Assembly: GCA_973895155.1 (NCBI GenBank)
Contig: OZ316896.1
Location: forward strand, 22,897,722-22,961,721
Direction of reading: 5' to 3'
Source: Marsupella aquatica
Taxonomy: Eukaryota; Plantae; Marchantiophyta
DNA: 64,000 bases
Positions 3,169 to 38,470 of the stretch are shown piece after piece. Within the stretch, counting starts at the first letter, position 1; each line of letters begins with the position of its first letter. A model generated the notes under the pieces. The model ran no database searches and had not been told where the DNA came from. It was given only the letters and a program-made list of their open reading frames with translations. The position numbers were made by a program, and so were the translations under genes.

Positions 3169-6100
3169 TCATCGCCCTACTGTGACTTTTCGTTTTACCT
3201 TCCTCTTAGCAAAAATATTTGTTGGTTGTCTTTGACTGGACTCCTTGGTTTGACTGAACATTTCCTCAAAGAAGCCAGAAATAACCCCCCTTTTCGGAAT
3301 GACCCATCTCGCAACAGAATCTGGTGATAGCGAAGGTCTGTGGTATGCTTTCGCAAGTCCTTCAGCTTCCAGAGCATATGTTGGTTCATTCAAACCCAGC
3401 CATGAAAGCCGAGAAACATCTCCAACTTGAACATTCAGCATTCTGCACCAGAATTTTAACGACCACAGTCAGATATCTGGATCTCGTTCTTCAGGACTTT
3501 CGGCACCTAAGAGGGTACTGGTAAGTGATACACTGATAAATAGTCACGAGGAATTATGTAAAAACAATCAGATAAACTCTATATGGTGGGCTGCCCAAAA
3601 CTTTATTTCAATGAGAATTAATATCAATACCAAGACAGCTTCATTACAGAAAGTCTATCTTGCGTTTAGACAACTGAAGGTTAACAAGGACGGCTAAACG
3701 AAGAAGCTACTCACCGTAACGCAGTTGAAAAAAATATGACCAATCCGATATTATTCAAGCTCCGCTGCATTAGTTGATCTGCACCATACAATAGCTGATA
3801 TCGAATGTTCCCAGACAATCCCAAGAAGGCACCATAGCTCAGGGCACTTCTGCTAACTGAAGGTAGTGGCACGGTCGTCCTGTAACCAAAAGCCAGGCTC
3901 TTAGTCTTCCTGGCACAAATACCCGTCTTGCATTGATGATCAACTTCTAAAAAACCTCCCAGTTTAGGGATAAGAGTTGAGTAAAGATAGGTGAATTATC
4001 TTCTTGCAAAGTTTGAATTGGCAGCTACTTACTCTTTAGGGCGAGGAACAACCCGAGCAAGTCCAGCACCTGCTACTCCAGTTGCTGCTCCGATGACTCC
4101 AAGTTCCAAAGACTTGTAGAAGAACGTCAAAACTCTTTGGTTCTTGCTGAACTCTCTGAGTGGATAACTTGCGTCAAAACAATGATTAGGAAGCTTTTGT
4201 AAAGCATTCTGCCAATCAAACTTGAAGGTTTGTCCATAAGAACGACTTGGAGAAAGACACCAGACAGCAGCTGCATTGCAGACTGACATGGTCAAGATAT
4301 TAGCTGCAGCAAGACCCCATTCGTCTTTCAACCTGCAAAAGAAGCCAACGGAAGATGTTACCAAAAAGTATGACCAGAAAAAATACAGCGGCAAAAAACC
4401 TTTACTGGCCATGGCAGCGACTAGAAAGATAGCAGTCTAAAATACCTTTCCCCACGATGGTGAACTTCCCACCAAACCCCCAAGCCTATGGTGGTCACTT
4501 GCTCCACTGCAACCTTGTAGAGAAAAGATGGATCTGCAAGTATTCTGCTCGCAAACCCAGATTAGGGTTAAAACTTCTACAGACAAGGATGGGAACAATC
4601 CCCTTATCGAAAAACATACTCGGCCGATTGATTGTCAGAGGGAAATAATACTGGGCGAATCCGAATTAGGTCCCAGATTTGAACTCTACCGGATAATCAG
4701 CATTGATGGTAATTGAGCAAGATCTCACTGGTGCTACATTTTGACAGAGGCACACAGAGAAGAAGGTAACATGCAAACAGTAAATAAACTGCCTTACCGT
4801 CCGATGAGAGCTCTGGATGCAGTGGAAGGAAGGCTTCGTGCTATAGCCCTTGTCATTGTTGGCCTTGCATTGAGAGATATAAACCGCACCACAAGAGCAG
4901 TGCTTATTAAACCCTGCCAAGTAAATGCTCCTAATTAGAACAAAATGCCCCGATAACAAAACGACACTCGGAGAGGGATAAAACATACAGGTTGAAGTCA
5001 GCTTTCCGCTTCAATTGAGGAGTTGCAAATTACTTACCATTTCAACAGCCTGGCGAATTCCTGCTGGCAAACTCCTCATGGTTATGAACCACTCTTGGAG
5101 TACGGCCTCGACAATTTTGCGGTCAAATACCTGATACTAAAGCAGATTAGTCTGCGGTGGAGAGAAAGTCTACACAGTCCTACTCGACACTAGGAGGAGC
5201 AATGTTCCCAGAGAAATTACAATTCGATTCACAAACTCCTCCTCTTTCCAGTAATACATTCAAAGCCGGGAAAACGTGTTTCACTGAAGAAGAATCGTCA
5301 CGACTAGTGTTAAGTTACTGCAACCACCCAAGGAGCAGACAACTCCTGACGGACAACGCTGCAGGAGTGACAGCTTCAAAAGACTCACCTCAGGAACTAA
5401 AACTCGTCGCCCAAAAAGGCCACCGTCCTCGCCGTCATCACCATCATCGTCTTCGCCGAAGTAATCATCGTCATCGCCGTCATCATCACCACCATCGCCA
5501 CCTCCGTGATTGTTCTTATTTCCAATACCTCCGCTGCCACCGCCGTCTTCTAGCTGCGTATCAAGAACAAGGTCACAACACATGCCTTCCAACACGTCTG
5601 AACTCGGCATGTGCCACAACCACACGCCAATTCTCTCGCTTCTGACTAGATTGTAAGCAAATGCAAAATTCTAGCTGAGAGAATTGCTGCCTAGCCCTTT
5701 CTCGTGACGCAAGTGCACAAAGAACACTCACCGGTAGAATGAACGAGACGGAGACGTTTAGGGTTTGTCATGGATCAAAATAAAAATTCACGACCCTCAT
5801 GTGGCAAAATTCGATACTACAGACACTACAGGCTTTTCAAATCCTTCCCAACAGAGCAACCCAGGGTATAAGAGTAAGCTGAAATACCTGAGGAGACGTT
5901 TTAACTTGCGCAGAACTAATATCCAATTTCGATTTTTCCAGGGTAGCCCCGCCAAAGGCGCCATATTCTCTCTTCATTACCACCATGGCGGATTGAATAA
6001 ACAACGAGAGGCCAGGCACGCCTGCCGTGTCCTTCTCGGAAGGGCTTGTAGTCGAGAAACATCTTGCGCCAGCGACCTCTTCCGCGGACAGGAGTCTGCG

Positions 6101-6340: not shown

Positions 6341-6699
6341 ATCACTTCCCTCTACCTTTCCGCTCCGTTATTCTCGACCAAAGCTAGGGCTTCTCCCATA
6401 TAAACGTTATTCCGGACCTCCAGACCTCCTCTCCGCCATCCACCTGCGAGTTGCGTCGACCGAAGAGCTCGAGCTTAAATCCTGCGCGCGATCCCGAGCT
6501 CGCCCTCCGCCATCCCCCACACGATAATACCTCGATCCAAACTCTCACTTCTGATACGACACTTTCGATCCGAAGTTCCCGAACTCTCGCTTCTCACGCC
6601 GCTGCTTTCAGCCCCAACATCTACAGTGCTCAAATGATGATAAACCAACTTCTCACTTTCCACCACTAACTTTTCCGCTCCCACTCTTCTGTCACCGCT

Positions 6700-7710
6700 C
6701 CCCTTTATCCTTGGCTGGTTGGGTTCGAACCTTACATGCCTCTTTGCCCCTTTGGTACACTATTCTTACATTTATCTTTACATGTACCTTTGGTATTCTA
6801 TTTTTACCTTTATCCTTACATGTCTCTTCCCTTTTATCCTTGGGTGGTTGGGTTCGAACCTTACATGCCCCTTTGGTACACTATTCTTACAATTATCTTT
6901 ACAATCATGTACCTTTGGTATTCTATTTTTACCTTTATCCTTACATGTCCGCTCCCCTTTATCCTTGGGTGGTTGGGTTCGAACCTTACATACTCCTTTG
7001 GTACACTATTCTTACATTTATCTTTACATGTACCTTTGGTATTCTATTTTTACCCGTATCCTTACATGTCCCTTTGGTACTGTATTTTAACCTTTATCTT
7101 TAAACTCTGGAGACTGAGTTAGAACCTTACATGCCCATTTGGTACATTATGTTTACCTTTATGGTTACATGCCCTGGTACACTATTCTTACCTTTATCCT
7201 TAAACTCCGGTGGCGGTGTTTGAACCCTACATGCCCCTTTCCTACAATCTGCTTTGGACAATGCCCACAGTGGGCATGCGCTTGAACCTTACATGCCCCT
7301 TTAGTACCGTATTCTTACCTTTATCCTTGAACTCCAGTGGGTGCGTTTAAACCTTACGTGCCCCTTTGGTACCGTATTCTTCCCATTATCCTTAACATCC
7401 GGTGGGTGTGTTTGAACCTTACATGCCCCTTTGGTACCGTAATCTCACCTTTATCCTGAAACTCCGGTGGCTGCGTTTGAACCTTACATGCCCCTTTGGT
7501 ACACCATTCTTACCTTCATAATCCTTCAACTCCGGTGGCTGAGTTTGAATCTTACATGCCCCTTTGGTACCACATTCTTGCCTTTTATCCTTTTAAACTC
7601 CGGTGGCTGCGTTCGAACCTTACATGCCTCTTTGGTACGGTCTCCTTTGGATAGTGCCCACCGCAGGCTTGTGTTTGAACCTTACATGCCCCTCTGGTAC
7701 CACATGCTTT
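6700..7710. repeat. Minisatellite array with core GAACCTTACATGCCCCTTTGGTAC; about 12 core copies, ~125-140 bp higher-order units on the left and ~62-69 bp units on the right
   Basis: Core recurs at about 6727, 6856, 6981, 7122, 7222, 7284, 7349, 7414, 7479, 7546, 7615 and 7677; the intervening sequences are homologous to each other. Confidence 0.9.
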
Positions 7711-8402: not shown

Positions 8403-9290
8403 ATTGAGACGCCCTATTGATTATTTGCCTGACCATCTCTTCTTTTTAACACAGTGGGTCACTATCTAGTAGCCCGTCTAGTAGGTGGCTCGAATACGTT
8501 GATTTTTCAGCTTTGAGAGCACCCAGGACTGTCACGCCTACTAGATAGTGACCAAATATGAGTTTCCAATTGTACCATTTTTTAGTGTTCCCAAGTGCCT
8601 TGCGGCCACCCGTGAGGTGCCATTTTTTAATATATAAGACGCCCTGGTGGGGAGTCTCAAACCTTCAGGTTGATCTGCAGAAAAAAAACTTGTCCCAACA
8701 CTACCAATTTCGGTCAGCGGTCACGAGCGTGCGGACAAGCATTTGTGTGTCCGCCATTTTTTCCAGTAAAATGCCCTTGACTAAGGCCAGAGGCAAAACA
8801 AAAAAGATTGAGACGTCCTATTATTTGCCTGACTACCCGTTCCTTTGAAAATACGTACAGCCATAGTGGGTCACTATCTACTAGGGCGTCTCAAACCTTC
8901 AGGTCCACGGAAAAGAACTTTCTTTGGTTTTGGTCTGCAGTCACGAGTGTGTGGACACGCATTTTCATTTCTGCCACTTTTTTCCGGGAAAACATCCTTG
9001 ACCGCGGCCGGAGGCAAAACAAGAAGATTGAGATACCCTATTATTAATTTGTCTAATTACCCATTCCTTTGAACACATTGGGCTAGTATCTAATAAGGAG
9101 TCTCAAATCTCCAGGTCCATGGGGAAAAACTTGTCCTAAAACTACAAGTTTTGGTCTGTGATCACCAATGTGCGGACAAGTATTTTTGTGTCAGTCACTT
9201 TTTTCCAGGAGAACTCCCTTATTGCAGTTGGAAGCACAACAAGAAGACTGAGATGCCCTAATTTTTATTAACCCTTCCGTTCCTATGAAC
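8403..9290. repeat. Degenerate ~220-bp tandem repeat (about 3-4 units) with a 16-bp perfect inverted repeat; probable DNA-transposon remnant
   Basis: TGAGA(C/T)(G/A)(C/T)CCTA..., GTCTCAAA.CT.CAGGT and GTG(C/T)GGACA segments recur near 8405/8650, 8810, 9030 and 9250. GGTCACTATCTAGTAG (8457-8472) pairs with CTACTAGATAGTGACC (8538-8553). Confidence 0.75.
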
Positions 9291-10004
9291 ACGATTACAA
9301 ATAAATCTCGGGGGTCTCACTACATGGATGCCTCCTCATCACCTACGACGTTTTTAGGCCTCGGACCCCCTAAAATGTAAGAAAAAAAATTATTTTTTTG
9401 ACCCCTATAAAATTGGAATATTCTCATAATATTCCAAAATTTTGGTTATAAGGACCCTAATGTTCTTATAAGTCCCAAAATTGGATTTAAAAGACCCTAT
9501 TGTTCTTCTGAGAAAATTCTTAAGTCTTCACTTCAAACCAATAAAATGACCCTATACTTCGTCGCACGTGATATGCCATTTTTGTGGAAGTGAAACCCTC
9601 GAGAAATAAATACAAATAAACCTTGCAAATAATTTTATTTTATTTATAAATCAAGTAAATTGATGATTAGTTCCCACTTGCATGCACCCCACTTTAAATT
9701 TTGCTCAGGAGTCATGTATGGTCTAGAGGCTAGGCTTCACTCTAGGCAGTAGGTTCAGGAAATAGTTTTTGATTGAGATCATATACTCAACAACCTGATA
9801 CCCACTCTTCGAATGTATTAGAGATGAATACAAAATCAAATACTGCAAAAAAAGAATTATGTGCTATTTCCTGTTCATCTTTGCCCCCATCTATGTTTTT
9901 TGTCCACCCTCACTTTTAGTTTTGTCCTCATTGAGAATTATTGTCTAGAGGCTTCACTCTAGACCATAGGCCTGGAAAATAACTTAATTTGCATCCTGCT
10001 GCAT

Positions 10005-10349
10005 TGTTGAGCATCGACGACAATCGCAACGGCAAGCCCATGAACCATCCAACGCACAAGAGTCGACACAGAGAGATACGTGGTTCATCTTCACATTAGG
10101 CTACGTCCACAGGAACACACAAGAGCTTTACTGCACTCTAGGCCGACCGGCCATACCAAGCATCCACAGCACAAGCTCTCTCTATCTCTCAACTAGCTCC
10201 GTAAGAATGAGCCTGAGTTCCTTCTCTCCAAGCAAACACTGCTTGCTTATAGAGTGTGCACAGCATGACTAACCTAACCAAGTCTGCAACTAAGGTTAGC
10301 CTTAACTATGGTACAGTCGTAACTCTAGACCTAAGAGTAAATCCTAACA
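10005..10349 (-). repeat. 3' LTR (345 bp) of the Copia element
   Basis: Matches 25554-25971; TGTT...AACA ends; adjacent to the PPT. Confidence 0.96.
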
Positions 10350-10360
10350 ATCTCCCCCTT
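10350..10360 (-). other. Polypurine tract (AAGGGGGAGAT)
   Basis: Purine run immediately before the 3' LTR on the minus strand. Confidence 0.9.
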
Positions 10361-10540
10361 GACTCTGGTCTAGGGGAGGGTAAAGATTGCACCCTATATG
10401 ATTGCTCAGCGGGAAGTTCTGGAAAGAAAAACCAAACTAGTTTTTCCCTCTTTATACGAGAGTAGACCAGAACTAAGTCGTAGCCTATACAAGGAATGAG
10501 CAATAGCATATCTCAGTATCTACACAAATGTTAAGTAACC

Positions 10541-11312
10541 CTACTTGTGAGACAATTGCAAAACCTGTAACGCATCACGATGTCTAGAAAAACTCTCCAA
10601 AGGAATCACTTTGGTAAAAGCGTTAGTTGGGTTGAGTTTACCGTCAATCTTGACTAGCTCAAACTGATTATCAGACACAGCCTGCCTGATAAAATGGTAC
10701 CTGACGTCGATGTGCTTCACTCTGCTATCCATCACCTGGTTCACAGCAAGGTGGAGCGCACTTTGACTATCACAATGGAGCTTCACATTCCTCTGTGGCA
10801 ATCCCATTTCAGTGATAAGTCTATCTAACCAAATCGTTTCCTTTGCTGCTTCCGTTGCTGCAACATACTCCGCTTTTGTAGTAGACTGAGCAATACAATT
10901 TTGCAGAGTAGACCTCCAACTTATGCATCCACCTCCTAATGTGAACACATAACCTGTTGCTTTTTGTCTCATTCGTAGGACAAAAAGCTGATGACAACTT
11001 GAAGTGTGGAGCCAACGGGGTACTCACTGGCTTACTATCCCCCATGTTGAACCTTGCAATTACTTTCTTTGCATAACTGCTCTACGTCAACCATAGCTTG
11101 CCAGCCTCCAAGTCCCTAGTGATCTCCATACCCAAAATCCTCTTAGCTGGCCCTAAGTCCTTCATCTTAAACTTTGCACTTAGCAATGCCTTGAGCTTAA
11201 CAATCTCAGACCTATCCTTGGCCGCAATAAGCATGTCATCCACATAAAGTACTAAAACAATGAACCCAAAGACAACATTTGTCACCGGTTTAAGATACAC
11301 ACATGGGTCAAA
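10541..11312 (-). pseudogene. Copia pol C-terminal part: RT (FDPCVY, LYVDDMLI, MKDLG) and RNase H (TGYVFT, STTKAEY, CDSQSA, KHIDVRYHFIR)
   Basis: Canonical Copia motifs; in-frame stop near 11082; an apparent internal deletion near 10960 joins PTNETKS directly to the TGYVFT region. Confidence 0.92.
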
Positions 11313-12067
11313 CACTACTACATATTGGCCCCTTTTGCGAAGCTTTTTTTTGATGTCGGGATGGTCTTGCGATGTCATCGACTTCAGATATTTTGTGATC
11401 AAACACGCATCATAATAAACCATGCTCACAGGTTCGCAACATGGTGTTGCGAAGCTAAATACCTCGCAATTTGTTTGAGATCGGATTGAATTCGCAACTC
11501 TTTCAGATACTATTCGTCTCGCAAAGTATTTGTGGATCCGCGACCATCACGACTGCATTTGGATCTCTTTTGTTTCATAATTTAGCGATAATAATGTACT
11601 CAAATATATATTGTGAACCTATTAGCTTCGCACAATATTGTGAAGCATAAATAGTCGCAAGTTACCGAATCCAGTTGATTCGCAAAGTTGAGAACACATT
11701 GGCATCACAATTACCGATGGTGTGTTATTCACAAAGTGTTCAGAAGTTGCTTCTTGACAAGCTTGAAAATGTTTTGCAAAGAGAGTTGTTTGAAAATTTT
11801 GTAGAATGGAAATGTTTGAGAGAGTTTCTTTACAAGATGGAGAATGCATGTGTTTAGGTTACAGCTAGGGTTTTCAAAAAGGTGGCATGCATGAGGATAG
11901 CTTTGGAAACGGCTAAGGTTGCATATATAACAGTGAGATGAAATTTCAAAGTCCAATTAAGTGTTTGTAAAACAAAAGAAGAAAAGTAATATGTTAATAT
12001 AAATAAAACCATGATAGTTAGTTTAGGGTCAAATTCTGGGCCCACAACAAGTTTTACTACTAGTGCA

Positions 12068-15000
12068 TCAAACCTGGTCCTCATCCTCGCCTCCATTTGA
12101 CACAATAATAATGTCAGGTTTTTCCGAGATAATGGAACGGGACCGTGGCACATACGGTATAACAACTGACCACTCTAGGTCTGGTGGGTACGGAATATAG
12201 AAACACTGCTCAAGGTGACTTGGGAATGTAAATGGTTCAGATGTTTGCCAATGAGATGGTTGAAAGCTAGTTGCTGATGTCTTCAGTCGAGTAAACCCAC
12301 ACTCATCAAGAAGTACCGTGCGATTATCACCAACCAGGTGAATTTTGAACCACTTACACTTGAAGACATACTCTTCAAATTTGGAATCGGCATCATAGGA
12401 TATGATCAAGATCTCCTCAATCTTCCCATAGTGAGGCACCACATCTCTGATCACATTAGTGTCATGACGGCTACTTTGTGAATCTTGCATGAACTGCCCT
12501 TGAACTCCACAATCAAAAGTTCTTCCCCTCTTCTCATCAAGGTCAGAAATCCTGAAATGCCTCCCTTGTGTCCACATTGTTGTTCTGGTTTGAACAAGTC
12601 TTAAAGGACCATGAACAATTGTTCGAACCTCAGGAGTCATATCTGGAAAATGTGATACATTCTCACCTTGGGCCACCATAGCATCCAACTGAAGTACTTT
12701 CTCCTTCATATACTCAAGGAACTTTGGAAAGATCCTTGGGCGACGACTCTCCCTCTTTGCATCCTCATAAAACTCTCTCCAATCTTCCATCACATTGCTG
12801 TTACTCAACATGAAAGTACTAACCTGTGTCAACTCCACTGCGGTTAGTAAGCGTGTTTTTTTGCACCTGTTAAACGGTCCTCCTCCACTTCCCTCTCTTC
12901 CATCCAAGTGCGTGGAAAACTAGGATCAATGGTAGCTAAGATGTTACTACAATAAAACATACTCTCAGCTGCCAAGTATCCAGTTGCCATGCTCCCCTCC
13001 ACTCGTGCACGGTTCCGTACATAAGCCTTTAACACGGCCATATACCTTTCCAGCCAATACATCCACCTACAATGCACCGGACCGGCAATGGCAACCTCCC
13101 TCACAAGATGAACGAGAAGATGCACCTGACAATCAAAGAAGGAAGGAGGGAGGGCCTTCTCCAACTTGCATACCACCTCTGCTGCCAATACCTCCATCCG
13201 TGGTATCTCTTCTTCATATATTTCCTTTGAGCATATCCATCTCAACAAAGTGCCCAGTGACCAAAGGGCGTCTTGCACTTCTTCACTCCCCAAACCTATG
13301 ATTGCCACAGGAAGTATATGTTGTAGTAAACGATGATAGTCATGTGTCTTGAGATACATTGGCCATTTATGACTGTCCTCCATCCCAAAAGCCTTACGTA
13401 GATTGGCACCATAGCCTGTAGGAAACTGCATCTGCCCTATGCGTTGTCGAAACTCTCTTCTTTCACCAACACTCAAAACCCATGGAGTTGAAGGACGATG
13501 TTCCATCCCTGTGGATTCATCAACTATTATCCATACATCTGGATGTCGTTCTAGATCCTGGCATGCCTCCCTAAAATTAATGTTCTTTTCCCCATAAAAG
13601 TGCTTGATCAAAGCCTTCCCAACATTTCCCTCTATATGCATGGGGTCTAACAAGTGATGAATCTTCAACTCAGGCCAATAGGGCAAAGTGGCCAGTATAC
13701 CCCACCTTGTCAATCCACTACCATCAAATCCCATGGCATCTTCAGGGTCTGCCACCCTATCAGCTATGGACTTCCAATACGAAAATGTTGTGCGGTCAGG
13801 TATCTCACGCTCATCACCATTGATCATGTCAAAGTCTGAAAACAAAAGGGGGTCAAACCTCATGTGATGCCCAAGTGGAAGAAACTTGGTATGACCAAGG
13901 TAGATTATCTTGTGCAGCCATTTTGAGTACTTGGCCATATCGTGAAGGCTTGGACCACAAGTGGAGCATGCCTTGTACCCCTGAGTTTGGAACCCAGAAA
14001 CAAACCCAAACCCTGCTCACAAAATAACATTCTCAATTAGAGTCAAAGGAATTGAAAAGTTCATGTACATAGAATTAAAGAGGGACTTCCTTCTAAACAA
14101 ACTTGATCTCCAATACATGAAAAAAATACAAATCCATACCACTCACCTGGATAGTCATGCATGGTCCACATAATGATTCCCTTCAATTGGAAGACACGTG
14201 GTAACCCTCCTGTAGTTGTCCGACCATCATATGCCCATACACCCCCCCATAATTTATGGAGTTCCCCAACCAAGAGCGCCAAGTAGGTGTCCATGTTTTT
14301 TACCTTAGATGGACCTGGGATAATCAATGATAGCAATAAGAATCCCTTTTTCATGGACAACCATGGGGGAAGGTTGTAATTCATAACAACCACCGGCCAA
14401 ACCGAAGTAGGGCGCCCTTTCCCTCCAAGGGAGTGTGGGCTTACCCCATCTGATGCCAACCCCAACCTCACATGACGAGGGTCACGTGCAAATTCTGGCC
14501 ATTGTGACTCCACATGCTTGTGAGCAGGGGAATCAACTGGCAACCGCATGACACCGGCCTCTGATCGATGTGTCTTATCCCATACCATCAATTCTGCCAA
14601 GTCAGAACATCGGTACATGTGCAACAATCGAGGAATAATAGGAAACCAACGAACAGCTTTTCTAGGCACCTTTGAGGTCAACATGTTGGTTTCATATCGA
14701 GGCTCTTGACAAATTGGACACTCAGTTGCGCTGGCATTGGTCTCATGATAGAGAATGCAGTCATTCACACAAGCATGAATGATATGGTATTCCATGCCAA
14801 TGGATGATAGAACCCTCTTTGCCTCCTTCCAAGTTCCTGGCAACACATTTTCACTAGGTAACAAGAGATCATGGCAAATTGCAAACAAATCCGATAGTAG
14901 CGCATTGCTTGCCTTGTGTTTTGCTTGAAGATTCATCAATGCCAAGATGACAAATAGTCTATTCAAACGAGCACCCCCATAAATAGGTGTTCTAGCATGT

Positions 15001-16647
15001 GCCTTAGCTTCTTCCCATTGTTTTTGTCCTTCAGGTGTACGTTGAGGCCTTGGATCATGTGCAACATTTGGTGGAGGGTCTCCTTCATTGGGTGGGACAC
15101 CTCCTTCACCACCAATGTCTACACCAAACCAATCTGTCATGAAGTCATCCATGGCTGACTCTTGGTCTTGCATGACCTCATAATCTGTCCGAGGTGCCCC
15201 TTCATCTGGACTGTCATTATCATTGTCACTTGATGAGGAATCTGCTGATGATGTTTCCCCGTCTTGTGGCAAGCCCATTTCTTGATATGTAGCTCTCAAC
15301 CTCCTTGGCAACATATCTTGACTAGGCCGCACATTCTATAGAAAATACAATAAAGTATTCACAATGAAATTAACGCCAAATATAGTAGTGCTCGAAACAT
15401 ATTATTAACAATATAAAAAGAACATGTCATTACAAAACATACGTTCACATACGATGAACGTATAATACATGTCCCTAAAGTAATCCTAATCCCATTCATA
15501 ATGTGTAAACAACTCCTCTCCAACCAGAATGGTCCTATTAGCTACAACTAGACAATGGTCATGATGATATCTCTGCCCATAAGGGGCTGGAGGGGGACCA
15601 TCAACAAAAACCCATTCACAGTTTTTCCTACGCTTAGGCCGGGTCCCCACAGTACTGTTGATGAAACCGGCAATATTCCCACTACGGATGGGATCACCAT
15701 CAATTATACGCTGGTCACAATACTTTCTGGTGCAACCATCAAAAGTATCCATGTCCAATGCATAAGTCTTCCACTCAGGGTGTTGAACAAGGATCATGTT
15801 CCAATGTCTCCTCTTGTAAATGGGTCCACCATACGGGAACAACGTTGGTCCATCTGAAGAGCGCCCTTTTCCACCCATATCATCCACAATAATGTCCTGA
15901 CAAGAGAAAATCCCATACCCATGCCTCTCCCCTAGGGTCGAACTCTTGACAACCCAACGTCTTCCCCAAACTTCTATCTCCTCACCATAGGTTATATCAC
16001 ATGGCAAACCAAGGCACTCCGGATTCCAATCCTTTATGATAGGAACACACTTCCCTGTGAAGGTACAAGGGCCCCATCTACCATCAACCCTACAAGTGTA
16101 CTGATCCACTTCCCCTCTAGGCTGTCTTTTTGACTTTTTTTTCCCTCTTGTAACAATACCGTCACCCTTAATTGTCCCAACACTACCTTGCCCTGCTGCC
16201 ACTAAACGAACAGCTTGTGAAAGTGCCGAGCCTATAGCATCTAGAACTCCTTGTGAGGGAACATAGGGTGTTGGTGTAGTGGGTGTAGGCCTACTGGAAA
16301 CCTATAGGAAGAAATGGAACCAAGTGAGTGTGATGAACCTCCCAAATTTTATTTTATGCTACCTAGCAAGATTTACAAAATAAAATGGAAATCACAGTAA
16401 GTTTACAACTCACCATACGGGATGAAGAAGCTCCCGGTGTAAGACCTCGATGTTGGCCATATCGAGCAATGTGCTCCGCACATACATATGACTTTTGGAC
16501 AACCATCCCCACACATTTTTTACAACCACAAAGTTGGCGTGGTGGACCACTAGGTCGACGTACGGTTGGTTCAGGTTGAGGAGGAGGATGACTTTCTTCA
16601 TCGGAAGAGGAATCTGATGTGGTGGAAGTTGTAGAGGATGAAGACAT
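12068..16647 (-). CDS. CACTA TnpD-type transposase; exons 16647-16414, 15335-14147, 14012-12068, with one frameshift near 12860 (~1120 aa if corrected)
   Basis: N-terminal CxCxxC..C..H transposase-associated motif; IHACVNDCILY..CPIC; Transposase_21 motifs (RLGLASDG, WPVVVMNYNLPPW, WTMHDYPG|..GYKACSTC); DPMHIEGNV; KTHDYH; PPSFFD..HLLVHL; RWMYWLERYM (DUF4218-like); YGKIEEI..FKCKWF..EPF (DUF4216-like). Confidence 0.9.
15486..16301 (-). CDS. SET-domain (lysine methyltransferase-like) terminal exon inside the CACTA transposase intron; predicted 349-aa product when spliced to exon 16647-16414
   Basis: 272 open codons after the acceptor TTCTTCCTATAG. SET motifs in the correct order: HGYGIFS (GxG), PYGG (YxG), DGD..GNIAGFINS (GNxxRFINH equivalent), NCEW, ANRTILVGEELFTHY (ELxxxY). 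Confidence 0.85.
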   Translation of the reverse strand, partial: VSSRPTPTTPTPYVPSQGVLDAIGSALSQAVRLVAAGQGSVGTIKGDGIVTRGKKKSKRQPRGEVDQYTCRVDGRWGPCTFTGKCVPIIKDWNPECLGLPCDITYGEEIEVWGRRWVVKSSTLGERHGYGIFSCQDIIVDDMGGKGRSSDGPTLFPYGGPIYKRRHWNMILVQHPEWKTYALDMDTFDGCTRKYCDQRIIDGDPIRSGNIAGFINSTVGTRPKRRKNCEWVFVDGPPPAPYGQRYHHDHCLVVANRTILVGEELFTHYEWD

Positions 16648-17074
16648 CTGACAAGTATAGCAATTGGAAGGCGATTAGTAAAAACTTCACCAAAACCATC
16701 ATTGATAATCCCTACCTAAACATATTAAAAAGAATTGACAGAAAAATACCTTTATGAGACCCGGGCTTAGCAATGCCTTGACGGATCTTGTGGCTCAAAT
16801 TTCATGAACCAAATCTAGAAGGAGGGGAAAATCTGCCAATATACAATGAATTAAGCCATGCCTTATGGTGAACCAGAAAAAAAAGATGATAGATTGTAAC
16901 CCTCCATATTTACAGCAATGACTAGAAATGCATGAGAAAATGTTATACCTTTCAGATGCCCGGGCTCTCGCAAGGCATTATCATGCATTAGCCAAAACTT
17001 TAAAAAACATGGGGAAGTGCCCTACAACGCCAAAGAGTTTTCCTCTCCATGTTAATGAGATAGACAAAGAAATA

Positions 17075-17930
17075 TAAATAACCCAAACCCTACCCTAAAC
17101 CCAAACCATGAAATGAAACCCTTCATTAAAACCTAACCCAAATCCCTCAATCACCCTAAACCCTTACCCTTATCCTAACCAATACCCAAATCCCTCATTA
17201 AAAATTCAAACCTTTACCCTAAACCCAAACCCCTACCCTAAACCCAAACCATGAAATGAAACCCTTCATTAAAACCTAACCCAAATCCCTCAAGCACCCT
17301 AAACCCTTACCCTTATCCTAACCAATACCCAAATCCCTCATTAAAATTTCAAACCTTTACCCTAAACCCAACCCAAATCCCCCAATTACATATAAAACTC
17401 TTACCCTATCTACACCTTACTTTACCTATATAGGCCAACCCCCACCCCTATAGTTATTCTAAACTTCACCCTAACCCCTAAATTGAGGCCCTTTTTTAAA
17501 ACTTAAGCAAAAATTGTACCCCCTCAATTAGAACCAAATCCAACCCTATATCATGTTACACCCCAACCCAAACACTTACATTAGAAACCCAACCCCTTTA
17601 AAAAAACCACAATTAAACCCCCCAACTAAAAACCAAACCCAATCCCTTTAAAAAACAACCACAATTCAACCCCTCAACTAAAACCAAACCCAACCCCTGT
17701 AATTACTCACAACCTAATGCAAACCTCTACCTTGAACCCTAAGCCAAACCCATTAATTTAAACCCAACCCTTTTATTCCAACCTAACCCAAGTTTTAACC
17801 CCCTTAATTAAACCAAATACTCCTAGATTAAAACCAAATATAAACCTAACCTTTAATTAAACCCAAACCTTTGTTAACTTATATTCTAGTTATCCTTACA
17901 ACCCAAACATCCATTGACACCCCTTCCATG
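17075..17930. repeat. Almost G-free, C/A-rich telomere-like (CCCTAAA/AAACCC) low-complexity tract including a 143-bp tandem duplication (17091 vs 17234)
   Basis: Composition and the duplicated TACCCTAAACCCAAACCATGAAATG... unit are visible directly. Confidence 0.85.
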
Positions 17931-18029
17931 TTAACTTATGGGCAATTAACATACCTTAAATGTCGTTTGACAAACCTTAATAGCCGTTTGACACCCCAAA
18001 GTGTTTTCCAACCCTAAACCGATAAGACC

Positions 18030-18245
18030 TGCCTCGCAAATTATTTCACAAGTTAGAGAATATTTTTGCGAACCTACGACCTTCGCACTTGCTTCGCAAA
18101 AACAGAGGCCGAGAACAATTTTTTGGGTCTTCTGCGGGTTGCGATGGCTTTGCGAAGGGAATAGATTCGGAAGTGCCTCGCAAGTTGCGAGACTATTTGC
18201 GAGGGCGCGGGCTTCACAGTTTCCCATGCGTATGTCATCGCAAAC
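18030..18245. promoter_or_regulatory. Putative bidirectional promoter region of the CACTA with a TCGCAA/TTGCGA motif cluster
   Basis: Lies between the divergent transposase/SET gene (minus) and ORF2 (plus); about 9-10 copies of the subterminal motif in ~215 bp. Confidence 0.5.
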
Positions 18246-18368
18246 CCATTTTTGAACGGCGTAAACATCGGCGGGAGCTTGCATTCGGGCTCATTTCAGT
18301 TTTTGAGCGAGACGAGAAGGGCTGGGGCGCGCGCAACAGTACGAGGGAGACTGTGAGAGAGGGGAGCT

Positions 18369-20420
18369 ATGGCTACCGGTGAGGGGAGTGGAGGGCAAGG
18401 TGGTAGTGGTAGTGGTAGTGGTAGTGGCAATGGGGGAAATCCAGAGAAAGAGAAGAATGCCTGGGCAGACTTAGTGGCCCAACATCTCAGTGCTGCACAA
18501 TTGGGAGAAGTGAATCTCAATTCTCCAGCAGGGCTTGCCTCTTTGAGTGCCATTCTTGGACAGGTTTTGCAAACTGGGATTGTAGCAGGACAAGCTACTA
18601 GAGAGGGGGAGGAGAGGGCCGTAGCTGAAGAGAAGGCTAGAGAGAAAAAAAGGAAGAGAGAGGAAAGAACTAAGTCGGGAGTTGCCTCTCCTCAAGCCCT
18701 AGAGAAGCAGAAGAGAAGAGAGGAGAGAGATTCAATTCGAAAATAGAGGGAGGAGCAACGTCAGAAAGAGGAAGCAAGAAAAAAACTTCCATTCATTGCC
18801 TTGGAGACGAGTGGGACTCCAACTGAGCTAGCATATGCAGGGGCTAAGAGCACAATCAAGCAGATTATCACAAGCAATTTCTCACGAGGCATGCAGTGGG
18901 GGAAGATTGAGAAGGCAGAGCGAAAGAGGGTCATCAACCAAATCAAGGATGCATTTCGCAATGGGCCTGACATAGATGAGCAATGGTTGGCAGATAAGAT
19001 TTCAAATTCTATGTCTCAAATGCGATACCATGACAGGATGAAGATTAGAGCCCACCTGAAAGACTTGAGATCATACAAGAACTTGCGCAGACCCCTCCAC
19101 TTCACCGAGGACATCTGGAATTCGTTTTACAAGATTGAGGTGCAAATTAAGGCAGCTCACGAGTTGGAAGAGTGGAAGGGCAATCTAGATCGAGCCTTGA
19201 AAGCAAAGGAGGCCGGGAAGCTCCCCCTGACCACGACCTGAAGCCACTTGAGCAGAAGGTAGCTGAGATGCAGAAGGTGGCCGACCAGGAGGGAAAGCCA
19301 CCCAAGCGTTTCACAGATGCAGCCAAACGAGTGAAATCCACCCCCAATCCAGTCCACAAGTTGGGTCAAGGCGGGCTCCCCGGCCTCAAGTCACACTTTG
19401 TGAGTGCCTCTTGCTCCTCCCTAACCTCTCTATTCCTTTCAGAGTTGTGCAATGCAAGTGAATGACATCCCCGAAGGTTCTTGCTGTTGTGCATGCTTGC
19501 TTGGTTACTAGTTTAGGGCAACTCTGACACTTAGAATTTCTGGCAAATTTTTAAAAACTCTCGGGAACACAGTTTGCGAAGGTGTTGCGATGCGTATTTG
19601 TTCGCAAACCCCTCGCAAAGTCTATCATAGACTTTTTCCATTTCAATTTTACGATGCCTTTGCGAACAAATGCGCATCGCAAACTCCATCGCAACGCCTT
19701 CGCAAAAAAAGGTGGTTCGCAAGTTGCTATGCTTATAGGTTCGCAAATTTGAATTTTAAATTTTTTTTGGGTCATGTTTAGTAGTTGAGGATTTAGGCGT
19801 CACTTGTGGCTATAGGGTATGCTTAAGGGCAAATTTAACCAATTTTAATTGGTTTTATGCATGGCAGTATCGGAGGTACAAAAGGAAGATATCAAAAAAG
19901 CATATTGAGGTGGCGATAGAGCATGGACGAAAGTACCTCTTTGCGATGGTAGATGCCGAGTTGGCTACTGTAAGTGTCTAAGTGTGAACCATATGATTAG
20001 CATGCGAACATTGTGAGTGACCCTTTATGTCTTGCGGAAACTAATGATATGTAATGGATGCAGGAATCGGATGAGCCTGAGGGGTCGGGTGCTGATGTGA
20101 CCAGTAGTGATGACGATGAGGGGGCTACTCCTGGTACTAGTGGTGCTCGGGGGGGGAGTAGTCGTGAGGTAGGTTCTTCCCACCGTGGTAGTGGTGGTAG
20201 TCGTGTGTCATCAGCACACGTTGATGACCAGGGGGAGGAGGAGGACCCTGAGGATGAGGAGGAGGAGCAGGAGGGGCAGGAGGAGCCAGAGGAGCAGTAG
20301 GAGCAGGAGCAGGAGCGCCGACGGCCATCACGCACCCGTCACCAACAGGATCCCCGGAAGGATAAGGGCAAGAAGCCAGCCAAGAAGCCAACCAAGAGGA
20401 GCCGCAAGAGCCCATTCTAG
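18369..20420 (+). pseudogene. CACTA ORF2 (TnpA-like / Ptta-En-Spm-type accessory protein); exons ~18369-19399, 19868-19969, 20064-20420; disrupted
   Basis: Coiled-coil N-terminus; W..I...ERKRV Myb-like helix; PVHKLGQGG motif resembling Transposase_24 proteins; acidic/basic tail; GT-AG junctions. TAG stops at 18744 and 20298 and a frameshift near 19230. Confidence 0.7.
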
Positions 20421-21208
20421 TTATTTTGTAGAGATACATGCATGAGAGTGACTTGTCATGCCGGAGCTTAGGGTAGGAAGAGGCAGCATAGGTTTAGAAG
20501 GGTAGACCTAGCATCAGATATTTCCCCCCTCTTGTCCATGTATAGGGTTCTTTGAAGCCCTATCATTTTGTTCATGCTTTTCCATTTTATAAAACAACAA
20601 TTTTGCCTTCCACATTGGGTTCCAAGGAAAACCCCTCGCAAATAATGTATTGAATCCTGTGTGATCATAATTTTGCGAACCCTTTAAGAACTCATTCCCA
20701 TCGCACAATATTAACCCCAAGGCGTCGCACTTTTTGAGTCAATTAACTTCAGAACTTCAGATCCAAATATGTCGGGTTTTTGTGATACTTCTAGGATCGC
20801 ACTTTCCTAATCGCAACCGTTCACAAACTTCTGAAATCACCGGTATCGCTCTTTGTCATACAATCCCCATCAAAACAATTGAACCAGTATCAATCGCAAA
20901 TATGATGCGATGGTAAATCCGTCTCAAATATTGACGCCCGCGCGGGACGTGTGCGTGTATGTTTGCAAACCTTATGCGACGTATAATGGATCGCAGAAGT
21001 ATTGAATATTGCGAACCTCTCAGCTTCTCAGTTTGCCATGATGTTGCGATGCCGTTGCGATGGTCCGCGTGCGAAGTTATTAGGTTTGCAAAGTGCGAAG
21101 GGGGTGCGATGCGCGTATGTTCGCAATAGCCAGAATTATGAAAATCAGGGGCTTGTTAGTTGCGATGAGATTGTCTTCGCAAAACCGGCCGATAGTGTTG
21201 TAGTGAAA

Positions 21209-24200
21209 CACACTCCTGTGAAAGTCTTGTGCATGAATCCAATCATCAAACCGCTTATTCCACTATCTTGGTGACTGCTTCAACCCGTACAAGGATCTCA
21301 ACAATCTGCAAACCAAATCCTCTTGCCCTCTCTTCACAAAACCTAGCGGTTGTCTCATGAAGATCACCTCTTCCAAGGTGCCATAGAGAAAGGCTGTGAC
21401 AACATCCATCTGATCTAGCAGCAGACCAAACATTATAACAAGCACACACAATAGCCGTATTGTTGAGTACTTAGCAACTGGTGAGAAGACCTCATTGTAA
21501 TCCACACCTTTTTCCTGTGTGAATCCCTTGGCTACCAACCTAGCCTTGTAGACCTTCGATCCACCTCTCATGGATTGATCCTTTACCTTGTATATCCACT
21601 TGCTGTCCACCACTTGCTGTCCCTCAGGCAGCTTGACAAGCTCCCAAGTTTTGTTGTCCTTCAGTGACTGCATCTCCGTTTGCATTGCTGCAGTCCACTC
21701 CTGCTTCTCCTTAGAAGCACTTGCCTCATGAAATGAAGAAGGTTCCCCTTCTTCTAGTATCAACGCATCACCCTCATCTTTAGTAACAAAATCCTCCTCT
21801 TGCAACTGAGATGAATCAACCCACTGTCCATATCTTGGTGGAGCGCGTACAGTGCGACGAGATGTTCTTCTAGCCGATGACTCCGGTTGATCTGCGTTAG
21901 TTGGTATAGTTTGAAGCTCACCAGCATCCACTTGCTGCTCACCAGCATCCACTTGCTGCTTACCAACATCAACAAACTCCTCTGGTTCCTCTGGCACAGG
22001 AACCAGCTCCATATTTGGAACAACTCTTTCTCTCCGGTCATGGACCTCATGACCAATCTCCCCCTCAACGAGATCCGGGATAGGAGATTTTCCTTTGTCA
22101 GTACGGGAGACCTGAGTATTCTCCCCCTCCTTCAATAATCTGGATTCATTGAAGGAAACATCCCTACTGACAACGAGCTTATAGGCAATAGGATCCCATA
22201 GCCTATAGGCTTTCACACCACTCTGGTATCCAAGAAAAACACATTTCTTGGAGGTAAGATCCAACTTGGTCTTATTCTGCTTTGGTGTGAGAGCATATGC
22301 ATCACTTCCAAAAACTACCAAGCCATGATAGTTTGCTTGCCGCTTATAGCGCATCTCAAACGGCGTTTTGAAATTGATAGCACTAGAAGGAGAAAGATTT
22401 ACCAAATAAGCTGTGGTATTGACAGCTTTTGCCCAAAATTCTTGTGGTAAACCTGATTGGCTCAACATACTCCGTGACCGCTCCAATAGTGTCCGATTGA
22501 GCCTCTTAGCGACACCATTCTGCTGCGGAGTATAAGTTGTGGTGAGATGGCGAGTTATCCCCTGTTCTGAACAGTATTCTTCAAATTCCACTGAAGTGTA
22601 CTCCCCGCCGTTGTCTGACCTCAAACTCTTCACCCTTGTTTCCAAACACTTGACCGTGTTTCCAGTCTGATTCTCCACCTGGGCCTTCCACTTCTTAAAA
22701 ATGGATAAGACATCAGAATTATGCGTCATGAAATAAATCCACACAAATCTTGAGTAATCGTCAATAAATGATACATAGTACAACTTTCCAGAGTGTGAGG
22801 AAGTCGGGGATGGACCCCACACGTCACTATGTATGTACTCAAGAACCGCCTTGGAACGATGTGTTCCAACACCAAAAGCACGACGATGCTACTTTCCAAG
22901 AATGCAATGCTCACAAAACTCTAATTTACAAGATTGCAAATTAGAAATGAGTCCATTTTTCCGTAAGATAGCCAAACCCTTCTCACTCATGTGGCCTAGC
23001 CGTGAATGCCATAGATGAGTCATCTCCTCGTGAGACTTGGTTACATTGGCGTCTCCACATACAGTATTGTCCTGTAACACATACAAATTCTTTTGTCTGC
23101 TCCCCTTCAAGATCACTGTCTCTCCCGACCTGACTTGAAGTTCATCATCAATAACGCTCCATTGATGACCATTTGAATCCAACACACCCAGTGAAATCAG
23201 ATTCTTACGCATGCCAGGTACATACCTGACTCCGGACACTGTGCGCATAGTGCCATCAAACATTTGAATCTTCACAAACCCAATACCCTCAATTTGACAG
23301 GAGTGATCATTTCTCATCAAAACTGAACCGTTTGAAACAGAGTAAGAACTGAAAAACTCTCGAATGTAACAAATGTGAAAAGAGCAAACACAATCAAGAA
23401 TCCACACATCATCTTCTATTCTAGATGACGTGCACAGGGCATACCCCTGGCTTCATAATACATACTCATCATTGAGTAAATCAGCATCTCCATCAGCCCT
23501 AGCCACATTTGCCGATGAAGATTCAGTTGCCTTTCCCTTACAGTCTCGCTTGAAGTGTCCAACCTGGTTGCACTTCCAACATGTCACCTGCCTTCTCTAA
23601 GGGGATTTGTCTTTAGACTTAGATTTGGATTTAGATCTAAACTAGGTTCTATGGTCCCCAGTTGGTCGTTGCATACTCCTCCCACGGTTAACATTGAGGG
23701 CAGCACCAGAGGATGAAGGCTGTGATGTGATGTGCATCTTTTGCTGAAGATCATCACTAAGCAGAGAACTTACCACGTCATTGTATGAAATGGTATCCCT
23801 ATCACAATGCAACAACACCCGTGATAGGGATTGGTAGATGGAGGCAATGAACTGAGAAGCTGCAGAGCCTTCGTCTCATCATTCAAAGTCTCCCCAAGGT
23901 TTTCCAAGTCAACGACCATGTTGTTGAAAGCATCCACATGGTCCTGCAACTTCATACCGGATTCCTTCATCCTGAAACTCATCAGTTTGTAGGAAGTATA
24001 GAGCCGGTTCGACAACTCCTTGCGGTGATACTTGCTCTGCAATTCCACAAATAAGGACATGCAGTCCTTATGTGCACCCAACTGCTTGATGATGGGAGGC
24101 ATGAGATAGAGTGTAACACACCACACTCCTTGCTCCTGCATGCGCTCCCATTGTTTCTCATCAACATCGTCTTCACGAGGGCTTAGCAGTTGGCCCATCC

Positions 24201-24490
24201 CTGAAGCATAGAGCACTCCCTTCACCTACTTCTCCCAAAGCAAGTAGTCAGAGCGCCCATCATACTTTGTCACTTCATACTTGGGTCCCCCAAGCTTGAA
24301 CGTACCCATCTTCTTCTTTGGCACTACTGTGAGCTCCGGTAGTAGAACAGCTTCCTCCCACTCGTCGCACCGGTGATGGTACCGGTGTCACGTGCTCTTC
24401 CTCCTGCTCCTCTCTCTCCACCACAAACCGCCGCGGTGATCCTCGTGCTTCAAGTTCCACGTCTTCAAAAATCTCCTCCGAATCACTCAT
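21209..24490 (-). pseudogene. Copia gag-pol N-terminal part: gag, zinc knuckle (CWKCNQVGHFKRDC), protease (WILDCVCSFHI), pre-integrase (LWHSRLGHMS), integrase (RSDNGGEY, TPQQNGVA), start of RT (KARLVAKGFTQ, QMDVVTAFLYG, SLYGLKQSPR)
   Basis: Motifs found in ORFs 23770-24225, 22889-23407 and 21263-22822; several stops and frameshifts. Confidence 0.93.
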
Positions 24491-24607
24491 ATGAGAAAAA
24501 ATCACGAAAAATAATGTTTTTCACAACTTCTAAAAAAACTCAAAACTAATCACCGCCACGTAGCCCATGAAGCTAGGAGTCCAAGACAGAAAAATTATAC
24601 AAATTTT

Positions 24608-24718
24608 GGTCGCCCTTGGAGCGAAGCTCCTTCTGGTCACTCCGGGTCGCCCTTGGAACGAGGCTCCCCCTGGTCACTCCGGGTCGCCCTTGGAGCGAGG
24701 CTCCCTTTAAGTCGCCCT
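24608..24718. repeat. 37-bp tandem repeat x3 in the Copia 5' leader
   Basis: GGTCGCCCTTGGA(G/A)CGA(A/G)GCTCC at 24608, 24645 and 24682. Confidence 0.85.
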
Positions 24719-25539
24719 CTGAAACCCTATTGCTACAAAAATCTCGCCGCAATTCCCGGACAAAGTTACTATTCACTAACTTGTTGTTTTCCTTGTGCCC
24801 TAGGTCACCGCCGCACCTCACCTCTCCGCGATGCGCTAAATTGCCATAGGAAACACAATTTGCCAACATCCAATGTTGCTTGCTGCCGCCAATTCCACAA
24901 GTAAAAATGATGACCGCCGACGGGAAAATGTTGCCCAATTGCATAGGCACAATCTGCAAGCTCAGTAGAGAAAAAATCTTCCGTCGTGTCACACTCACTC
25001 TGCGTCAAGTGCCAATCCCGAACTCAAAATGACCGTCTTGACGCAATCAAAACATTGAGCCATAGCACTTTGCGTTTCTTCCTCCAAGATGGACGTGACG
25101 ACGAGTAACCCGGTTCAGATGAGAACAAGCTCCATAGCCTGTGAAAAAATCTGAACGTCTCCTTCACTCATCATGACGCACTCGGTAACCATTCGACAGC
25201 AACTCAACTACCAAAATGAACAGCTCACTTTAACCTCCAAAATGAGCTATAACATGTGACGCCTCCCGCACCGCACAACTCAAACCGTTGAAAAAATGAT
25301 CTCTGGTTTCTCCCTCGAAATACCGTCGAACATGAAAAAACTCCAGATCGACGCAAACTTTGATTCCTCCGCACAACGGATACCGATCAGCGAGTTCTAA
25401 CCACCGTTAGAAAGCCCTCTCACTTATCTATCCGTTCAGCCACACACATTCAAGTTTCATGCGATGAAACTCCGAATGTAACACCGACAATGAACGCTGG
25501 AAAACCATCACAAAAAAGACCTCGTCACCTCCCAGGCAT

Positions 25540-25551
25540 GTTCTGATACCA
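25540..25551 (-). other. Primer binding site complementary to initiator tRNA-Met (TGGTATCAGAAC)
   Basis: Two nucleotides inside the 5' LTR; one mismatch to the usual TGGTATCAGAGC. Confidence 0.92.
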
Positions 25552-25553
25552 AT

Positions 25554-25971
25554 TGTTGAGCATCAACGACAATCGCAATGGCAAGCCCATGAACCATCCA
25601 ACACACAAGAGTCGACACAGAGAGATACGTGGTTCACCTCCACATTAGGCTACATCCACGGGAACACACAAGAGCTTTATTGCACTCTAGGCCGACCGGC
25701 CATACCAAGCATCCATAGCACAAGCTCTCTCTATCTCTCAACTAGCTCCGTAAGAATGAGCCTGAGTTCCTTCTCTCCAAGCAAACACTGCTTGCTTATA
25801 GAGTGTGCACAGCATGACTAACCTAACCAAGTCTGCAACTAAGGTTAGCCTTAACTATGGTACAGTTGTAACTCTAGACCTACAGCATGACTAACCTAAC
25901 CAAGTCTGCAACTAAGGTTAGCCTTAACTACGGTACACTCGTAACTCTAGACCTAAGAGTAAATCCTAACA
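25554..25971 (-). repeat. 5' LTR (418 bp) with an internal 73-bp tandem duplication
   Basis: Matches the 3' LTR apart from about 10 transitions and the duplication at 25810-25955. Confidence 0.96.
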
Positions 25972-38132: not shown

Positions 38133-38470
38133 TGAACCTTGGCTCTCCCTCCCCAATATGGGGTACCAACCCAGCTGCATTTTGCCACAATGTTACCCTT
38201 GCCCTCCCTCCCTGGCACCCCCTCCCTGGCATGCCCACACTCCCTCTGCCACGGGCAGGGGGAGGAGAGAAAGGGGAGGCAATGGAACCCTGGCTCTCCC
38301 TCCCCAATATGTGGTACCAATGCAGTGGCCTTTTGCCTCAATGGTACCCTTGCCCGCCCTCCCTGGCATGCCCACGAGGGAGGCTGGTGTGGGCATGCCA
38401 GGGAGGGGGTTGCCTCAGCCTCCCTCATGCGGGGAGGGAAAGGAGAGAAAAGGGAGGCATAGGAGGGGAC
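38133..38470. repeat. GC-rich ~150-bp direct repeat plus a 19-bp perfect hairpin; probable non-autonomous TE fragment
   Basis: GAACC(T/C)TGGCTCTCCCTCCCCAATATG.GGTACCAA near 38134 and 38285; CCCTCCCTGGCATGCCCAC...GTGGGCATGCCAGGGAGGG at about 38356-38407. Confidence 0.7.

Follow-up and report, generated by a model that had tools for sequence, protein, structure and literature searches.

Can a plant transposon own a SET (histone methyltransferase-like) domain, and what would it do with it? The question is raised by a 64,000-nt stretch of the genome of the liverwort Marsupella aquatica (assembly GCA_973895155.1, contig OZ316896.1, positions 22,897,722 to 22,961,721 of the forward strand; hereafter the window), in which a first, sequence-only reading had noticed an open frame with SET motifs inside a transposon of the CACTA (EnSpm) type, and had suggested that the family may use it as a chromatin writer or as a decoy. 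Our analysis answers the first half of the question: SET is an old cargo of bryophyte CACTA elements and has a distinctive splice layout, with the SET domain lying as an exon in what is predicted to be the first intron of the transposase gene. The second half can be answered by degrees.

A SET exon within a CACTA transposase gene

The frame lies on the minus strand (16301-15486) and consists of 271 codons followed by TAG. The five motifs picked out by the sequence-only reading are all present in the order it gave, from residue 128 to residue 261: GYG at 128, PYGG at 156, GNIAGFINS at 208, NCEW at 227 and GEELFTHY at 261, followed by E-W-D and the stop. Pfam recognises the SET family (PF00856) at 24.7 bits (E 3.4e-5), which is narrowly above its cut-off of 22.4. 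In sequence searches of the PDB, the single sequence and an alignment of 26 rows retrieved no SET protein; only the profile of the 96-row family alignment did so, with LegAS4/RomA, itself without the motif His, as its best match (E 2e-7). The same 96 sequences gave an AlphaFold model of residues 63-271 with a predicted local distance difference test score (pLDDT) of 90.7 and a predicted template modelling score of 0.86, compared with a pLDDT of 38.7 on 26 sequences. Histone methyltransferases are what this model resembles. Foldseek returned SET8, MLL1 and G9a first (E 3e-7 to 2e-6), an Atlas search also yielded SET clusters, and VIA-align gave Z 12.1 for Set1 (root mean square deviation 2.6, 124 aligned residues), 12.0 for PRC2 (2.5, 133), 11.4 for SET8 (2.4, 124), 11.2 for both SET7/9 and EZH2, 10.9 for PRDM and 8.2 for SETMAR. 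Judged by sequence and by model, this is a real SET domain.

It is of no recognisable host class, because the fold matches are tied across classes at 17-25% identity. Host plant SET proteins of the E(z), Ash, Trx and Su(var) classes carry flanking CXC, AWS, pre-SET, post-SET and SRA domains, and on the frame from the window Pfam finds no domain other than SET. Its ten Cys are scattered, and none of the 84 family rows that have the catalytic Tyr shows CxCx2-4C after it, in agreement with the earlier remark that pre-SET and post-SET cysteine clusters are lacking.

Is the frame a gene of its own, as had first been thought? Its openness was confirmed, but its independence was not. Its earliest Met, residue 142, comes after the GxG motif, and none of the ATGs farther upstream has a stop-free path into the frame, so that a whole SET domain needs the exon in front of it. 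This exon 1 (16414-16647, minus strand) supplies an ATG, a Ser-rich leader and a CxCxxC..C..H zinc motif of the Transpos_assoc kind, and ends at a phase-0 GT donor at 16413; it is predicted to be common to SET and transposase. A predicted GT-AG intron of 112 nt (16302-16413) leads to the SET exon (15486-16301), which encodes a linker with a basic patch (residues 52-62), an N-terminal extension, the SET core, a three-residue tail and the stop. An AT-rich spacer of 150 nt follows (15336-15485), which would contain the 3′ end of the SET transcript and at whose end lies the phase-0 acceptor of transposase exon 2 (14147-15335; Transposase_21, PF02992, E 3.8e-39). The change of frame between 14146 and 14013 proved on inspection to be a GT-AG intron, beyond which exon 3 (12068-14012), like the preceding parts on the minus strand, carries the remainder of Transposase_21 with DUF4218 and DUF4216. 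Transposase_21 and DUF4218 exceed their Pfam cut-offs, and DUF4216 scores 29.3 against a cut-off of 30.6. One phase-0 donor thus faces two phase-0 acceptors, and both joins are in frame; at the level of splice signals, this is the arrangement of a common exon with alternative splice sites in the style of TnpA and TnpD. Since the SET exon ends in a stop, a transposase with the N-terminal domain of exon 1 must skip SET. It is likely, from these signals, that the alternative acceptors give either a zinc-finger-SET protein or the transposase from one transcript, and we are fairly confident that SET would be expressed through splicing from exon 1.

The gene belongs to a complete element of 9,893 bp (11313-21205), in accordance with the first reading, which had placed the frame inside CACTA ends. 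Both ends begin with CACTA at 11313 and 21205, giving CACTA...TAGTG termini, and form imperfect inverted repeats, at 11313-11341 (plus strand) on the side of the transposase 3′ end and at 21177-21205 (minus strand) on the side of a second open reading frame (ORF2); owing to an indel, a scan for exactly matching terminal repeats missed them. A CACTAG at 12065 was also considered as an end and rejected, having no partner. The element is flanked by a 3-bp target duplication, AAA at 11310-11312 and 21206-21208, within the reverse transcriptase region of a Copia long terminal repeat (LTR) element (10003-25971, minus strand). Excising it in silico with one AAA opens the reverse transcriptase frame of Copia again, and the empty-site joint 11309-21206 occurs in contigs of 4/4 public sequencing runs examined. 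Termini, 3-bp duplication, a Tnp2-type transposase, and a second ORF with subterminal motifs are the features by which CACTA elements are recognised (PMC4158355).

The insertion appears young, because the Copia LTRs are ~97% identical (333 of 344 aligned positions), and the SET-CACTA family seems to have been recently active in its host. In the Copia element itself, one LTR contains a 73-bp duplication, and gag-pol is interrupted by stops. In run X1, from which the window itself may derive and which does not count as independent, seven long contigs differ from the window copy at 22 of ~4,060 bases; one of them spans exon 1 together with the 5′ portion of SET and has 2 differences in 631. The lesions of the window copy, which the sequence-only reading had described correctly, comprise stops at 18744 and 20298 and a frameshift near 19222 in ORF2, and one frameshift in an A-run near 12855 in the transposase. 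Contigs with an extra base at the transposase frameshift (4/4 runs) and at the ORF2 frameshift (3/4 runs) point to related copies free of these lesions. Separately, an X1 contig fits both transposase exon 2 and the 3′ end of SET (15156-15528) with other letters between, which hints that the organism has a second, diverged subfamily of SET-CACTA elements.

Conservation and selection among bryophyte elements

Does the SET exon belong to the family, or to this copy alone? A word-indexed protein search found 41 SET relatives, whose named members belong to Calypogeia fissa and to five species of Sphagnum, and a profile search of 1.84 billion representatives found 128 at E <= 0.001. Forty-four of these 128 were inspected and 30 proteins looked up, those with an organism name coming from Riccia sorocarpa and Calypogeia. 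No canonical host SET occurs among the 41 or the inspected part of the 128; only some of the relatives were shown to lie in transposons. The layout itself recurs in 40 metagenome loci. The transposase stands behind SET in 21 of the 24 loci that have at least 400 nt downstream, and exon 1 in front of it in 16/16. The donor GT is at the same place in 16/16 loci, the AG of the SET acceptor in 22/25 and that of the transposase acceptor in 22/24, and the stop is at the same codon in 27/28. The spacer keeps its length (143-153 nt in 23/24 loci) with a sequence only ~52% alike. Outside these loci, the exon-1 motif is found on SET proteins named Calypogeia, Sphagnum and Riccia, including the distant Riccia protein P0048, and five of 200 proteins contain transposase sequence (P0027, P0095, P0123, P0126 and P0128; three named Riccia, one Sphagnum). 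The motif on distant SET proteins and the transposase in the gene models of relatives indicate that the link between SET and transposase is old.

Gene models in which SET and transposase are fused, obtained with a hidden Markov model search, were set aside as prediction artefacts, their junctions differing from one another and the SET exon having no conserved strong phase-0 donor; longer fused SET proteins were absent from the word-indexed search. Some distant proteins of the SET family have other N-termini (P0109 and P0113 of Calypogeia; P0102, P0115, P0116, P0160, P0164 and P0167). In scans that reach close relatives only, none of 52 viral candidates passed, and the one of 30 prokaryotic candidates that did, L041, was not SET on inspection.

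Selection tells the same story as gene order. For the SET core, the ratio of nonsynonymous to synonymous divergence (dN/dS) is 0.15-0.19 against 17/17 loci with a full core, with bootstrap values of 0.15 (0.08-0.23) and 0.19 (0.12-0.28), close to that of the transposase (0.11-0.16 against 8/8 loci); exon 1 gives 0.14-0.23 and ORF2 0.17. Among the Sphagnum-type copies, in contrast, the pooled ratio of nonsynonymous to synonymous polymorphism (pN/pS) is 0.79. Constraint between lineages combined with near-neutral decay within a family is the pattern of a gene selected upon transposition, and not that of a host gene or of a neutral capture. The sequence comparisons therefore support SET as a standing, selected part of this CACTA family, a dN/dS below 1 being the test that the first reading had proposed. 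That reading had also pointed to the intact SET beside broken neighbours. This point alone has no force, for if the four lesions fell at random, SET would escape all of them with P ~0.44.

These results bear on the idea that SET is a piece of a host gene captured neutrally, as in Pack-CACTA elements, or else a domesticated gene of the host that lies in the element by chance. CACTA elements do capture host exons, and the almost neutral differences among Sphagnum-type copies would fit such an origin. The upper bounds of between-lineage dN/dS (0.23 and 0.28), the same layout in liverworts and mosses, and the absence of canonical host SETs from the relatives named above argue the other way, and constraint between families together with near-neutral decay of the individual copies is just what is expected of a gene selected through transposition. 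We regard a neutral capture or a chance host gene as very improbable. Two outcomes that the first reading had named as refuting, a missing SET match and a recent, neutral fragment confined to this copy, did not occur.

How did liverworts and peat mosses come to have such similar elements? In trees of 75 rows (the 96 minus 23 short rows, plus 2 added; no host SET outgroup), the window SET is grouped with Calypogeia P0001 and the Sphagnum family in a single starred clade (20 rows, 100/99) that lies far from the Riccia sequences. Coding DNA of the element is 70-77% alike to Sphagnum-type copies (L021, L028 and L014), the terminus at 11313-11341 agrees with the end of L021 in 27 of 29 bases, and dS against the Sphagnum-type copies is ~1.3 (range 0.9-2.4), not clearly saturated. 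By these sequence measures the element appears closer to the Sphagnum-type copies than expected for a liverwort and a moss, and horizontal transfer between bog bryophytes is possible; old paralogous families with slow rates could also explain the closeness.

Activity, targeting and competing explanations

Is the SET protein likely to be an enzyme? With residues placed by sequence alignment and not by superposition of atoms, GxG (G128/G130), Y157 of motif II, the S-adenosylmethionine (SAM)-binding N215 and the catalytic Y268 are all kept. Across the 96-row alignment, G130 is conserved in 85/86 rows, Y/F157 in 90/90, N215 in 89/96, N227 in 95/95, E263 in 87/88 and Y268 in 84/86. The Phe/Tyr-switch position is Thr here, and Thr, Ala, Cys, Val, Ile, Ser or Gly in 84/86 rows. 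Yeast Set1 requires the matching Asn, the catalytic Tyr and the aromatic residue at +2, while its His-to-Ala mutant (H1017A) and its switch Tyr-to-Val/Ala mutants are still active, with more trimethylation in the His-to-Ala and switch-to-Val forms (PMC3585878). At the corresponding positions (Asn, Tyr, +2 aromatic, His and switch Tyr) the window protein has Asn, Tyr, Trp, Ser and Thr. Because Set1 H1017A is active, loss of the His lowers canonical membership more than likely activity, and the small residue at the switch position would favour the addition of several methyls. Sequence and model make it probable that the SET protein is catalytically active, and, if it is active, we think it rather probable that it would add several methyls to a histone tail. 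A relevant precedent is LegAS4/RomA, which trimethylates H3K14 (PMC10653858).

How could such a protein find the element? Besides the zinc motif common to SET and transposase, the element offers ORF2, which is divergent from exon 1 (18369-20420, plus strand; predicted exons 18369-19399, 19868-19969 and 20064-20420), is conserved in 8 of the 14 loci that have 2.5 kb upstream, and is possibly a TnpA-like DNA-binding protein. The element contains 41 copies of the hexamer TCGCAA, where 2.7 would be expected and 200 shuffles gave at most 8. Thirty-eight of the 41 copies fall into four non-coding clusters, with none in SET or transposase DNA: nine copies in one subterminal region (11335-11685), ten in the other (20636-21182), nine upstream of ORF2 (18034-18243) and ten in a predicted ORF2 intron (19574-19746). 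Locus L028 has 17 against 1.7 expected. As side observations, CpG observed/expected is 0.9-1.1 at the two element ends (not depleted) against 0.33-0.37 in the coding parts, and the stretch between exon 1 and ORF2 (17078-17900) contains degenerate, C-rich repeats that resemble telomeric ones and include a tandem duplication of 143 bp; telomere boxes were not enriched there (1 exact copy).

The mechanism that we propose builds on the observed ends, SET match, gene order with splice signals and purifying selection, and on the predicted fold; what comes after the gene layout we infer. One promoter would drive a transcript whose exon 1 is joined to SET, in which case the transcript ends in the spacer, or is spliced past SET to the transposase. 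The zinc-finger-SET protein, for which the basic patch (residues 52-62) could act as a nuclear signal, would reach the copies of the element through the zinc motif common to the transposase or through ORF2 at the TCGCAA clusters, a step to which we give an even chance. There it would methylate a lysine, probably of a histone and probably opposing silencing; by analogy with other plant transposons, we lean towards anti-silencing over self-damping. The whole chain, from alternative splicing through a SAM-dependent lysine methyltransferase that marks the chromatin of element copies to escape from silencing, is the account that we tentatively prefer, at somewhat less than an even chance. A broader version is more doubtful. 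In it, CACTA elements of bryophytes would produce a histone methyltransferase of their own by splicing, in place of the transposase; the zinc finger or ORF2 would direct it to the copies, its mark would override PRC2/H3K9 silencing, and it would belong to an old and diverse SET family that has perhaps moved horizontally between liverworts and peat mosses.

Several observations weigh against this account or its parts. The three loci of 24 without transposase all have a 3′-truncated SET, and the locus counts are not independent, because 39 of the 40 loci match Sphagnum-named proteins at 84-100% and so represent one Sphagnum-type family. Fifteen of the 22 long SET copies are broken. At the active site, the NH motif reads NS, His being replaced by Ser in 93/96 rows, and the tail after the catalytic Tyr has three residues here and in 26/84 family rows (family range 2 to 20 or more); the post-SET region usually helps to shape the peptide groove and cofactor pocket, and a very short one has been linked to inactive PRDM constructs (PMC3178901). 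With regard to targeting, exon 1 matches Pfam PF13963 at E 0.0086 and 16.7 bits, under the cut-off of 27.7, and the ORF2 pieces searched have no Pfam or Atlas match. Finally, enzymes for H3K4, H3K27, H4K20 and H3K14 lie within ~1 Z of each other as fold matches, so that neither the substrate nor the sign of the mark can be read from the fold.

What else might the SET protein do? It may be an active methyltransferase whose substrate is not a histone but the element's own transposase, ORF2 or a host silencing protein, and which tunes transposition. The N-terminus that SET would have in common with the transposase speaks for this, as do the known SET enzymes with non-histone targets (PMC10653858) and the fact that no host histone-methyltransferase family is favoured; against it, the best structural matches are almost all histone enzymes, though the PDB is itself dominated by such enzymes, and comparable transposon cargo has been read as chromatin-directed. 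We consider a non-histone substrate unlikely, if still worth real weight. Somewhat less probable is a dead or weak SET that serves as a reader or decoy, binding a histone tail or a PRC2/SUVH partner and thereby blocking host methylation. The short post-SET tail together with the His-to-Ser change suggests it, and PRDM domains, several of them inactive as isolated constructs, are among the fold matches; however, GxG, Asn and the catalytic Tyr remain near-invariant down to ~25% identity, as for kept catalysis, and the His-to-Ala mutant of Set1 is active (PMC3585878). A shade lower still we would place an active writer of a repressive mark of the H3K27 or H3K9 type, which would damp the element or silence host defence genes. 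PRC2 and EZH2 are tied for best fold match, bryophyte transposons carry H3K27me3 (trimethylated lysine 27 of histone H3) or H3K9 marks (bioRxiv 10.1101/2022.10.24.513474), and splicing to SET costs transposase and would be a built-in brake, but Set1/COMPASS scores equally and the tested accessory proteins of Spm and VANDAL are anti-silencing.

Related systems and meaning for bryophyte genomes

How new is a SET gene on a transposon? SETMAR, a domesticated host gene, consists of a host SET and a mariner transposase. It resembles the window element in that SET is joined to transposase sequence, whereas the window SET travels with a mobile element and has only the N-terminal zinc motif in common with the transposase. 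SET8, bacterial LegAS4/RomA and viral SET proteins also have a SET core without Cys-rich pre-SET and post-SET zinc clusters, but they are only 14-25% identical to the window SET, for which no close viral or bacterial relative was found. Plavaka elements of red algae, in the EnSpm/CACTA superfamily, carry the SET accessory gene PAG2 (bioRxiv 10.1101/2025.02.11.637652), which like the window SET is a long-term cargo with a proposed chromatin role. PAG2 stands as a gene of its own in a cassette of three and is fused to an N6-adenine DNA methylase, while the window has a bare SET exon within a transposase gene of the plant type (Transposase_21), in land plants; the two are likened here by domain. 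Pfam found no N6-methylase or Harbinger transposase domain on the SET, transposase and ORF2 frames scanned. Other DNA transposons with a SET methyltransferase gene are the HarbingerS and MuDR families of Phytophthora (PMC12730594) and the SET-bearing Helitrons (bioRxiv 10.1101/2025.02.11.637652); they differ in superfamily and host, and a first exon common with the transposase is not mentioned in the parts of these reports available.

The splice layout has its counterpart in En/Spm. In Arabidopsis Spm, TnpA arises by alternative splicing or from a separate gene, and the TnpA of Spm1 targets YCCTCGCAA clusters and is anti-silencing (bioRxiv 10.64898/2026.08.24.746577). The TnpA-TnpD systems of Spm1 and Spm3 thus share with the window element the superfamily, a transposase and a regulator made from one locus by alternative splicing, and clusters with a TCGCAA core. 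Their second product, which binds DNA through a helix-turn-helix domain, brings in DNA demethylases of the host, whereas that of the window element would be an enzyme, with a separate ORF2 besides; in the same source, TnpA-like proteins are called restricted to flowering plants. VANC of VANDAL elements is likewise a transposon-encoded factor thought to act on the chromatin of its own copies, but it belongs to the MuDR superfamily and has no SET domain.

In the literature, with Repbase and subscription journals outside the search, we found neither a land-plant CACTA element with SET nor a SET exon nested in a transposase gene, and the parts of PMC11982613, PMC11906373 and PMC5725981 available make no mention of a SET-bearing CACTA. 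The earlier impression that plants had no described SET-CACTA family stands for land plants in the literature searched, but has to be qualified by the published SET cargo of red-algal Plavaka. Transposon-borne SET is an already known kind of cargo.

The rest of the window contains, besides the Copia and CACTA elements, an exon of a RETICULATA-related gene (4029-4436, minus strand) and a multi-exon MMS19 gene (29011-36884) which, over the exon searched, is 71% identical to that of Calypogeia fissa, the closest named, and 41% to that of Riccia; by this likeness the host is probably a leafy liverwort. Tandem arrays lie at 6695-7710, 8700-9220 and 43190-43912 (units of ~38-68 bp, 220 bp and 186-200 bp, respectively), and at 38196-38410 there is a GC-rich inverted repeat whose perfect arms of 24 nt are separated by 146 nt.

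What would a SET exon mean for the plants that harbour it? The tested plant anti-silencing factors, TnpA and VANC, bind DNA and depend on enzymes of the host; a lysine-methylation writer owned by the element would, if our proposal is true, counter silencing in a different manner, and in a plant group whose transposons carry H3K27me3 besides H3K9 marks. The small size of the protein, its confident fold and the seemingly recent activity of the family make the role of a transposon-borne SET testable in Marchantia or Physcomitrium, and a plant methyltransferase that is compact and possibly retargetable could also find use in epigenome editing. In the gene sets of bryophytes, such genes are likely listed as host 'SET domain-containing proteins'.

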